A stretch of DNA of 45,337 nucleotides from a virus (lineage: Duplodnaviria > Heunggongvirae > Uroviricota > Caudoviricetes), in IMG/VR virus record IMGVR_UViG_2718217885_000006; one strand, 5' to 3'. Numbering within the stretch: the first letter of the stretch is position 1; the number at the start of each line of letters is the position of its first letter. The position numbers and the translations under genes are program-made. A model generated the notes under the pieces. The model made no database searches. It saw only the letters and a list, made by a program, of their open reading frames with translations, and was not told the origin of the DNA. Of the stretch, positions 5,382-6,252 are shown one piece after another.

Positions 5382-5484
5382 GAGATGATACCTCAGTTAC
5401 GAACTTTGTTTTATGGTAACTAAGGTATCAAGGCGTGGCAAGTGATTTTTGATACTTTGGTTTCTTTTTGTGTTTTGAGTCTGG
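5382..5484. promoter_or_regulatory. left operator/promoter-like region (OL/pL analogue)
   Basis: TGATAC half-site motif at 5386-5391, 5450-5455 and inverted at 5425-5430; the 12-mer TTGATACTTTGG (5449-5460) recurs in the cI-cro intergenic region. Confidence 0.45.
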
Positions 5485-6141
5485 TCAGAAAATATCCCAC
5501 CTGGCATCAACTACAACACCTACTATTTCGCAATCATTGTCCATTTCTATGATTGGATATTGTGGATTAAGGGGCTTTAGAAACGCCTTTCCCATTTCAG
5601 AAATATATTTTTTGAATGTTGCTTCATTGGTGGATTTTTTTCTGGCGATGACGTAACACCCTGAAAAAACTTCTTTATCTGGGTTGACAAGGATCGACAT
5701 TCCTTCAGGAAATGTTATTCCTACGGGCGAAGTCATTGAGTCTCCGTGCACTTCCAGCCAGAACCCCCTATCACCAGCGTATTTTACAGAATGCCTCCAG
5801 TTATCCTGATCATACATGTTGTAGTCATCACCAGCAGTTGCGAATAATCCTGCCTGAACCCAGTTAATTACAGGGTAAGAGTGTGCTGTGTCTCTCTGTG
5901 GGCAGCTCTTAACATTATTTTCCCAATGCTTATCTTTTTCATCTCCGCTCTGAAGCCACTGCGGTGAACACTGCAGTGCAGCTGCGACTTTAAAAAGGGT
6001 GTCACCGTTGAAACTTTTTGTAAGGCCTTGCTCGGCTTTACTGATTGCAACTCTGGTGACCCCTGCTTTTTTAGCCAACGCATCTTGCGTTAACCCAGCT
6101 TTTTGTCGTGCGTTGATGAGGCGTTCACCTAAAGATTTCAT
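5485..6141 (-). CDS. cI: CI-type prophage repressor (HTH plus S24 LexA-like peptidase domain)
   Basis: N-terminal HTH (LTQDALAKKAGVTRVAISKAEQG), C-terminal S24 peptidase with GDSM serine motif; start set at MKSLGERL with AGGAGA SD 8 nt upstream; divergent from cro-like gene. Confidence 0.85.
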   Translation of the reverse strand: MKSLGERLINARQKAGLTQDALAKKAGVTRVAISKAEQGLTKSFNGDTLFKVAAALQCSPQWLQSGDEKDKHWENNVKSCPQRDTAHSYPVINWVQAGLFATAGDDYNMYDQDNWRHSVKYAGDRGFWLEVHGDSMTSPVGITFPEGMSILVNPDKEVFSGCYVIARKKSTNEATFKKYISEMGKAFLKPLNPQYPIIEMDNDCEIVGVVVDARWDIF

Positions 6142-6252
6142 TTTTCTTCTCCTTTCATGGCTGCTGATACTAAAGTAACAGAATCTCTTGATACTTTGGA
6201 TTCTCGCGTTTAACATTCTTGGATAACAGAGTATCCGGTGTGAGACTAAAGA
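6142..6252. promoter_or_regulatory. right operator/promoter-like region (OR/pR/pRM analogue)
   Basis: TGATACT at 6163-6169 and 6189-6195, inverted AGTATC at 6230-6235 inside the palindrome GGATAACAGAGTATCC (6221-6236); candidate pR -35 TTGATA (6188-6193) and -10 TAACAT (6211-6216), 17-nt spacer. Confidence 0.55.

Follow-up and report, generated by a model that had tools for sequence, protein, structure and literature searches.

Candidate OL and OR operator clusters flanking the cI gene in the immunity region of a phiP27-like prophage

Introduction

Do the TGATAC repeats on both sides of a cI-like gene form the left and right operators of a lambda-style switch, and which of the neighbouring DNA-binding proteins would read them? 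This question is raised by a phage DNA of 45,337 nucleotides (IMG/VR virus record IMGVR_UViG_2718217885_000006), the whole of which is referred to as the window in the following. The original prediction, made from the letters of the window alone, interpreted the repeats as the pattern of OL and OR operators bound by a CI-type repressor. In Stx-converting phages, repressor-operator interactions set the threshold of prophage induction and therefore Shiga-toxin release.

The window is a phiP27-like prophage, the immunity region of which is 98.4% identical to that of the Stx2e phage phiP27 and 83-84% identical to those of Stx1a and Stx2a phages. Among 50,697 phage records, the N-terminal domain of its CI protein is only found in phiP27 and nine Stx1a/Stx2a phages, and we know of no characterised operators in phiP27 or in these nine phages. 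The full-text literature that was searched held nothing relevant on the operators of phiP27 or on the exact site sequences; the original phiP27 paper of 2002, which lies outside this scope, may mention operator-like repeats. Likewise, no published data on CI or Cro binding, footprints or transcription starts in this region were found in the searchable literature. Thus, the operator specificity is not described in the literature searched, and the switch itself is of the ordinary lambda-style type.

Distribution of the element

Of 5426 complete E. coli genomes, 194 (~3.6%) carry the region, each with a single copy; that it never occurs twice is expected of an immunity determinant. It is 100% identical to a prophage of E. 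coli 09-00049, which adjoins a DUF72 gene downstream of yecN and cmoAB; beyond the replication genes, the gene layout of this strain, including an IS66 insertion, does not match the open reading frames (ORFs) of the window. The window itself starts at the prophage integrase (positions 1-1314). Compared with the window, phiP27 (NC_003356) carries approximately 580 extra bases at 4998-5574, including ORF L09 between the homologs of L08 and L10, which are absent at window positions ~4975-5012, and the megablast match falls into two pieces.

A possible second regulatory module lies further to the right. Rfam matches at gathering level were obtained for isrK (8672-8748, plus strand) and a C4 antisense RNA (8773-8860, plus strand), which fall within, or immediately before, the 5' end annotated for a Rha/Ant-like gene (8615-9478), following a ProQ/FinO-like ORF (8230-8622). 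The stretch from 8230 to 9478 resembles an antirepressor control module of the P1 immI type beside a lambda-type CI switch. In addition, the gammaproteobacterial small RNA STnc100 is matched at 18634-18809 on the plus strand (93.7 bits), and no Rfam RNA family was matched in the operator/cI region.

Genes of the immunity region

The central gene, encoded on the minus strand at positions 5485-6141, codes for a repressor of 218 amino acids (WP_000838349.1). It combines an S24 autopeptidase domain at the C-terminus with an HTH_3 domain at the N-terminus, the recognition helix of which reads VTRVAISKAEQG (Pfam: HTH_3, 1e-14; Peptidase_S24, 1.2e-22). A longer ORF extends to position 6216, but the gene begins at the ATG of position 6141, behind the Shine-Dalgarno sequence AAGGAG. 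The full-length protein aligns with lambda CI (3.7e-34), including the VQAG cleavage site and the catalytic residues GDSM...FKK, and the C-terminal domains of the two proteins match on their own with an E-value of ~5e-31. The N-terminal domain matches P22 C2 and 434 Cro, with PDB hits 1adr, 2r1j and 1per; it is 45% identical to the N-terminal domain of P22 C2, and the recognition helices of both proteins share a V-A-I-S core.

Divergently from cI, a gene on the plus strand (6253-6480) encodes a protein of 75 amino acids, which corresponds to L12 of phiP27 and is predicted to adopt an all-alpha Cro fold. No Pfam family was found for this Cro-like protein, which belongs to a small family of 'hypothetical proteins' of the Enterobacterales. 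Taken together, the identities of the repressor and the Cro-like protein define a cI-OR-cro immunity region with a second cluster of sites on the far side of cI. On that side, the minus-strand gene at 4947-5381 encodes an HTH_3 protein of 144 amino acids (phiP27 L10 type, PHROG 4739). The HTH module of this gene is mobile: it recurs in near-identical form next to an unrelated repressor in phage phi467 and Stx2_14040. The copies compared with the window module (4947-5381) are located at 2457-2885 in locus L084, 2222-2950 in L085 and 2722-3369 in L002. In Stx1a/Stx2a phages, a protein of ~215 amino acids joins the module to a second HTH domain.

Six dyad-symmetric sites in the two gaps

cI is flanked by a left gap of 103 nt (5382-5484), which separates it from the HTH gene, and a right gap of 111 nt (6142-6252), which separates it from the divergent cro gene. 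The hexamer TGATAC occurs in these gaps at 5386-5391, 5450-5455, 6165-6170 and 6189-6194 on the plus strand and at 5425-5430 on the minus strand. The 12-mer TTGATACTTTGG, which according to the original prediction is shared by both gaps, is found exactly at 5449-5460 and 6188-6199; if one mismatch is allowed, the shared stretch grows to the 17-mer TTGATACTTTGG(T/A)TTCT. The predicted half-sites at 5386 and, inverted, at 5425 were likewise located there, whereas the one placed at 6163 begins two bases further on, at 6165. An inverted copy had also been proposed at 6230, within the palindrome GGATAACAGAGTATCC; the palindrome is present at 6221-6236, but the hexamer at 6230-6235 is AGTATC, i.e. 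GATACT inverted, and is followed by C rather than by the A that a full TGATAC would require.

What had been missed is the partner of each half-site: every TGATAC pairs with a weaker or degenerate inverted half-site exactly 4 bp away. Hence, the two gaps contain six dyad-symmetric 16-mers, three on each side of cI, which are imperfect palindromes of the form TGATAC-N4-GTWWCN with the ideal core GATAC-N4-GTATC. In the left gap, OLa (TGATACCTCAGTTACG, 5386-5401, plus strand; half-sites TGATAC and GTTACG, spacer CTCA) covers the 5' UTR and the Shine-Dalgarno sequence of the HTH gene. OLb (TGATACCTTAGTTACC, 5415-5430, minus strand; TGATAC and GTTACC, spacer CTTA) overlaps the spacer and the -10 element of a candidate pL, and OLc (TGATACTTTGGTTTCT, 5450-5465, plus strand; TGATAC and GTTTCT, spacer TTTG), which includes the left copy of the 12-mer, lies upstream of the candidate pL -35 element and 20 nt from the cI stop codon. 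In the right gap, ORa (TGATACTAAAGTAACA, 6165-6180, plus strand; TGATAC and GTAACA, spacer TAAA) is nearest to cI and overlaps -10 elements of candidate pRM promoters, and thus resembles OR3 of lambda in its position. ORb (TGATACTTTGGATTCT, 6189-6204, plus strand; TGATAC and GATTCT, spacer TTTG) includes the right copy of the 12-mer and overlaps the -35 element of a candidate pR, and ORc (GGATAACAGAGTATCC, 6221-6236, plus strand; GGATAA and GTATCC, spacer CAGA) covers the predicted transcription start of this promoter. The sites are spaced by 24 and 32 bp in OR, where the 24-bp pair takes in the cI-proximal site, and by 29 and 35 bp in OL; the two clusters are separated by ~770 bp. No second type of repeated dyad was found in the two gaps.

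The pattern GATAC-N4-GWWWC has five matches on both strands of the 45-kb window, all of which lie in the two gaps; 0.52 matches are expected, and none of 100 shuffles reached five. Since this pattern was defined after the sites had been seen, independent support comes from conservation in other phages. Five of the 44 TGATAC copies of the window fall into the 214 nt of the two gaps, compared with 0.21 expected from the density in the window (Poisson P ~3e-6). No full dyad match was found in the window outside the two gaps, for instance upstream of the Rha gene at 7260, and the sole extra match to the relaxed pattern GATAM-N4-GWWWC, at 36341, lies within large plus-strand ORFs of the late region. 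A function of TGATAC as a dispersed binding motif was also considered and rejected: the 44 copies exceed the 16.8 found in dinucleotide shuffles, but 34 copies are already expected from an order-4 Markov model (z = 1.7), in which the hexamer ranks 104th of 4066, so the window-wide excess is compositional.

Conservation of the sites and covariation with the repressor

Operators should be kept in phages that share this cI, as the original prediction had pointed out. For this comparison, 80 IMG/VR loci with CI relatives were used, and 66 viral contigs encode a CI that is at least 86% identical. The sites are present in all loci with a CI of at least 86% identity and absent in those loci of the IMG/VR set in which the identity is 51% or lower; the motif search across related prophages recovered them in E. 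coli-type phages as well as in other genera. From the loci at or above this threshold of 86%, 29 different OL and 23 different OR sequences were aligned, in which 21% of the half-site columns, 42% of the columns of the 4-bp spacer and 72% of the other intergenic columns are variable (half-site versus other, Fisher P = 5e-12). A disproportionate share of the substitutions within the sites affects the 4-bp spacer and the outermost positions. OLa, for example, is invariant in the 29 E. coli-type OL sequences except for single variants at 5393 (spacer) and 5401 (outer position). The sites are also conserved in Stx1a and Stx2a phages, in which OLa is unchanged; OLb is conserved there and in the E. 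coli-type alignment. In some relatives the symmetry is complete: OLc of locus L069, which encodes a CI of 86% identity, is the perfect palindrome GATACTAAAGTATC, and ORc of the Stx2a phage Stx2_12E129 is the perfect palindrome GATACTTAAGTATC.

A scan across genera, in which one genome per species was used, identified prophages encoding CI proteins with 72% (Phytobacter), 62% (Raoultella), 55% (Xenorhabdus), 52% (Yersinia) and 51% (Serratia) identity to the window CI. The first three of these genera retain both the recognition helix VTRVAISKAE(Q/L)G and the same motif at the same places, and wherever a CI of at least 55% identity has this helix, the motif accompanies it. In these three genera, the OR sites start exactly 24 and 32 bp apart, like those of the window, although the DNA between the sites has diverged. 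The equivalent of OLb is GTAACTAAAGTATC in Phytobacter and Raoultella and GTAACTACAGTATC in Xenorhabdus; OLa is absent in Phytobacter and Raoultella. In the two Serratia loci (L071 and L089; CI 51% identical), the helix reads VSRMAISKIEMG, and TAAAC-N4-GTTTA is found at the same positions with the same spacing. P22-C2-like relatives have P22-type, ATTTAAG-like operators, which validates the approach. It therefore appears from these comparisons that the operator specificity co-varies with the recognition helix of the repressor, as expected of immunity groups; since Serratia is a single diverged lineage, this covariation is suggestive and not statistical.

These data also bear on which protein would use the sites. 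The HTH_3 protein encoded at 4947-5381 (L10 type) could itself be the reader, for instance to regulate its own expression, as three sites lie directly upstream of its gene and one of them covers its ribosome-binding site. However, three equally good sites are found 770 bp away between cI and cro. Moreover, in phi467 and Stx2_14040 an unrelated S24 repressor has a near-identical L10-type module to its left, and the gaps flanking this repressor contain a different repeat and lack the GATAC-N4 motif. Conversely, Phytobacter and Raoultella keep the motif despite a different leftward gene context. The sites thus track CI and Cro, and not the HTH protein, and we regard a role as operators of the latter as very improbable.

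It is harder to separate CI from Cro. The motif is linked to the CI/Cro pair, and because both proteins always co-occur, co-occurrence cannot tell which of them binds, or whether both do. The Cro family accompanies the motif in every genus examined and has a predicted DNA-binding fold, so the sites might be bound only or chiefly by Cro, with CI recognising something else. The two gaps, however, offer no other repeated dyad for CI, and to our knowledge CI and Cro share their operators in every characterised lambdoid switch (lambda, 434 and P22). Moreover, the Serratia relative has a similar Cro (~65% identical), yet both the CI helix and the half-site are changed, which fits CI as a determinant, though Cro differs too. 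Binding only or chiefly by Cro is therefore improbable in our view.

Candidate promoters and transcription downstream of cI

A candidate pR is located on the plus strand at 6188-6216, with the -35 element TTGATA (6188-6193), a 17-nt spacer and the -10 element TAACAT (6211-6216), and would drive cro. Its -35 element lies inside ORb, in agreement with the proposed overlap between the right 12-mer and pR. In the E. coli-type alignment, variation is found in the spacer and the flanks of this promoter, but its two hexamers are conserved. Of six related OR regions that carry this operator motif, five have the candidate promoter as well, and it was not detected in the Yersinia locus L088; the same architecture is found in L002, L069, L086, L087, L126 and L089. 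On the minus strand, a candidate pL at 5413-5441 (-35 TTGCCA, 5441..5436; 17-nt spacer; -10 TACCAT, 5418..5413) would drive the HTH gene, which is the first gene downstream of it, and further leftward genes. The promoter scan also detected pL in L002, L069 and L126, and in L086 TTGCAC-17-TACCTT was recognised by eye at the same position. A rightward promoter starting from the left 12-mer was rejected, as the TTGATA at 5449 has no -10 element at the right distance.

For cI, only speculative promoters can be proposed. A weak candidate pRM on the minus strand (6167-6194) combines GTATCA (6194..6189) and TAGTAT (6172..6167) with a 16-nt spacer and has 7 of 12 matches; an alternative is the extended -10 element TGT-TACTTT (6180..6172, minus strand), which is conserved in all genera. 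In all related loci (L002, L069, L086, L087, L126, L088 and L089), the weaker half-site of ORa reads TGnTACTTT in the orientation of cI. As this sequence is kept even with the different operator consensus of Serratia, it may be the extended -10 element of a cI promoter embedded in ORa. Either candidate lies within ORa, which would thus be an autoregulatory site.

Since TTGATA at 6188 is a good -35 element and TGATAC is common throughout the window (44 copies compared with the 34 expected), the repeats could be regarded as promoter hexamers with chance near-matches rather than as operators. Five of the six sites, however, do not coincide with a -35 element, and all six have a partner half-site at the fixed spacing of 4 bp. 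Furthermore, perfect 14-bp palindromes occur in relatives, and the site spacing is conserved across genera, which does not hold for the intervening sequence. There is hence next to no likelihood that promoter hexamers account for the sites, and they are treated as candidate operators below.

No intrinsic terminator was found between the cI stop codon and OL/pL (5485 to 5381, including 5466-5484), neither in the window nor in E. coli-type loci, and the predicted fold of 5395-5520 is no better than that of shuffled sequences (z = -0.35). By contrast, relatives from Phytobacter, Raoultella, Xenorhabdus and Serratia (L086, L087, L126, L071 and L089) have a GC hairpin followed by a T-run after cI. 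The HTH gene had been proposed to be the first gene of a repressor-controlled leftward operon. The candidate pL with OLa and OLb fits this proposal; yet, without a terminator between cI and pL, transcription from the cI promoter may additionally run on into this gene, which would then not be a purely repressed early gene. It is tempting to speculate that E. coli phiP27-type phages lost the terminator after cI, so that transcripts from the cI promoter enter OL, pL and the HTH gene. CI bound at OL could then act as a roadblock, or the HTH protein could be co-expressed with CI in lysogens as a second regulator of the lysogenic phase, and weak half-sites could double as promoter elements: TGnTACTTT in ORa would be the extended -10 element of the cI promoter, and GTTACC in OLb would be part of the pL -10 element. 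We consider this scenario unlikely, but if the HTH protein were co-expressed with CI, the switch would be a two-regulator circuit and not a plain copy of that of lambda.

Proposed function of the sites in the switch

Gene identities, the predicted Cro fold, the conservation of the sites and the candidate promoters all support, in silico, the OL/OR reading of the original prediction. We propose, with a probability of roughly 0.85, that the gaps flanking cI serve a lambdoid switch of this phiP27-type prophage as its OL and OR, with three operators each that are bound by CI dimers and, by analogy, also by Cro. A CI dimer would bind each 16-bp operator via its P22-C2/434-type helix-turn-helix, and the all-alpha Cro protein encoded across OR would, again by analogy, bind the same operators. 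CI bound at ORb, on the -35 element of pR, and at ORc, on the predicted pR start, would switch off rightward transcription of cro, Rha/Ant and the replication genes, and ORa, which covers the likely cI promoter, could mediate negative autoregulation. On the other side, CI at OLb, on the -10 element and spacer of pL, and at OLa, over the leader of the HTH gene and its ribosome-binding site, would switch off leftward early transcription. As the C-terminal domain of CI is closely related to that of lambda CI, cooperative binding between neighbouring sites is likely, and looping between OL and OR over ~770 bp may occur. Prophage induction would result from RecA-stimulated self-cleavage at the conserved Ala-Gly. 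The geometry of the sites is unlike that of lambda, and the order in which they would be occupied may therefore not copy the lambda logic.

The operator consensus GATAC-N4-GTATC and the predicted pL, pR and pRM promoters provide targets for footprinting and reporter assays, and the consensus allows sequence-based typing of immunity groups. In addition, the variants of the CI helix and its operators across the Enterobacterales form a natural series in which the evolution of specificity can be followed.

Comparison with known systems

The proposed region shares with lambda the gene order, i.e. a leftward early gene, OL, cI, OR and cro, and the presence of three sites per side. The S24 domain of the window CI is homologous to that of lambda CI, with the Ala-Gly cleavage site and the Ser/Lys dyad aligned, and in both systems the sites overlap early promoters, which are candidates in the window, and the cI-proximal OR site covers the presumed cI promoter. 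However, the window operators are 14-16 bp long and follow GATAC-N4-GTATC, whereas those of lambda have a 17-bp sequence, and the N-terminal domain of the window CI is of the HTH_3 (P22 C2/434) type. The arrangement of the sites differs as well: one site lies downstream of each predicted transcription start, the spacings are 24/32 bp in OR and 29/35 bp in OL, and OL and OR are only ~770 bp apart because, compared with lambda, rex genes are missing. Furthermore, the first gene downstream of pL encodes an HTH_3 protein and not an N-type antiterminator, no terminator separates the cI transcription unit from OL/pL, and Cro is predicted to be all-alpha instead of having the lambda Cro fold.

With P22 C2 and 434, the window CI has in common a DNA-binding domain of the same HTH_3 family and short, dyad-symmetric operators with a non-contacted central spacer. 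Operators of 434 are 14 bp long, and the 14-bp operator length of the window matches them. The sequence of the half-sites is different, however, and the C-terminal domain of the window CI is nearer to that of lambda CI.

Among Shiga-toxin phages, 933W has three OR and two OL sites and H-19B four OR sites, as summarised in PMC8065619 (citing Tyler et al. 2004; Shi and Friedman 2001). The early promoters of these phages are CI-controlled, as is proposed here; the immunity type of the window, which phiP27 and the nine Stx1a or Stx2a phages share, is a different one. Taken together, the standard lambdoid model is confirmed in concept and not challenged by the phiP27-type region, which is most relevant to the control of Stx-phage induction.
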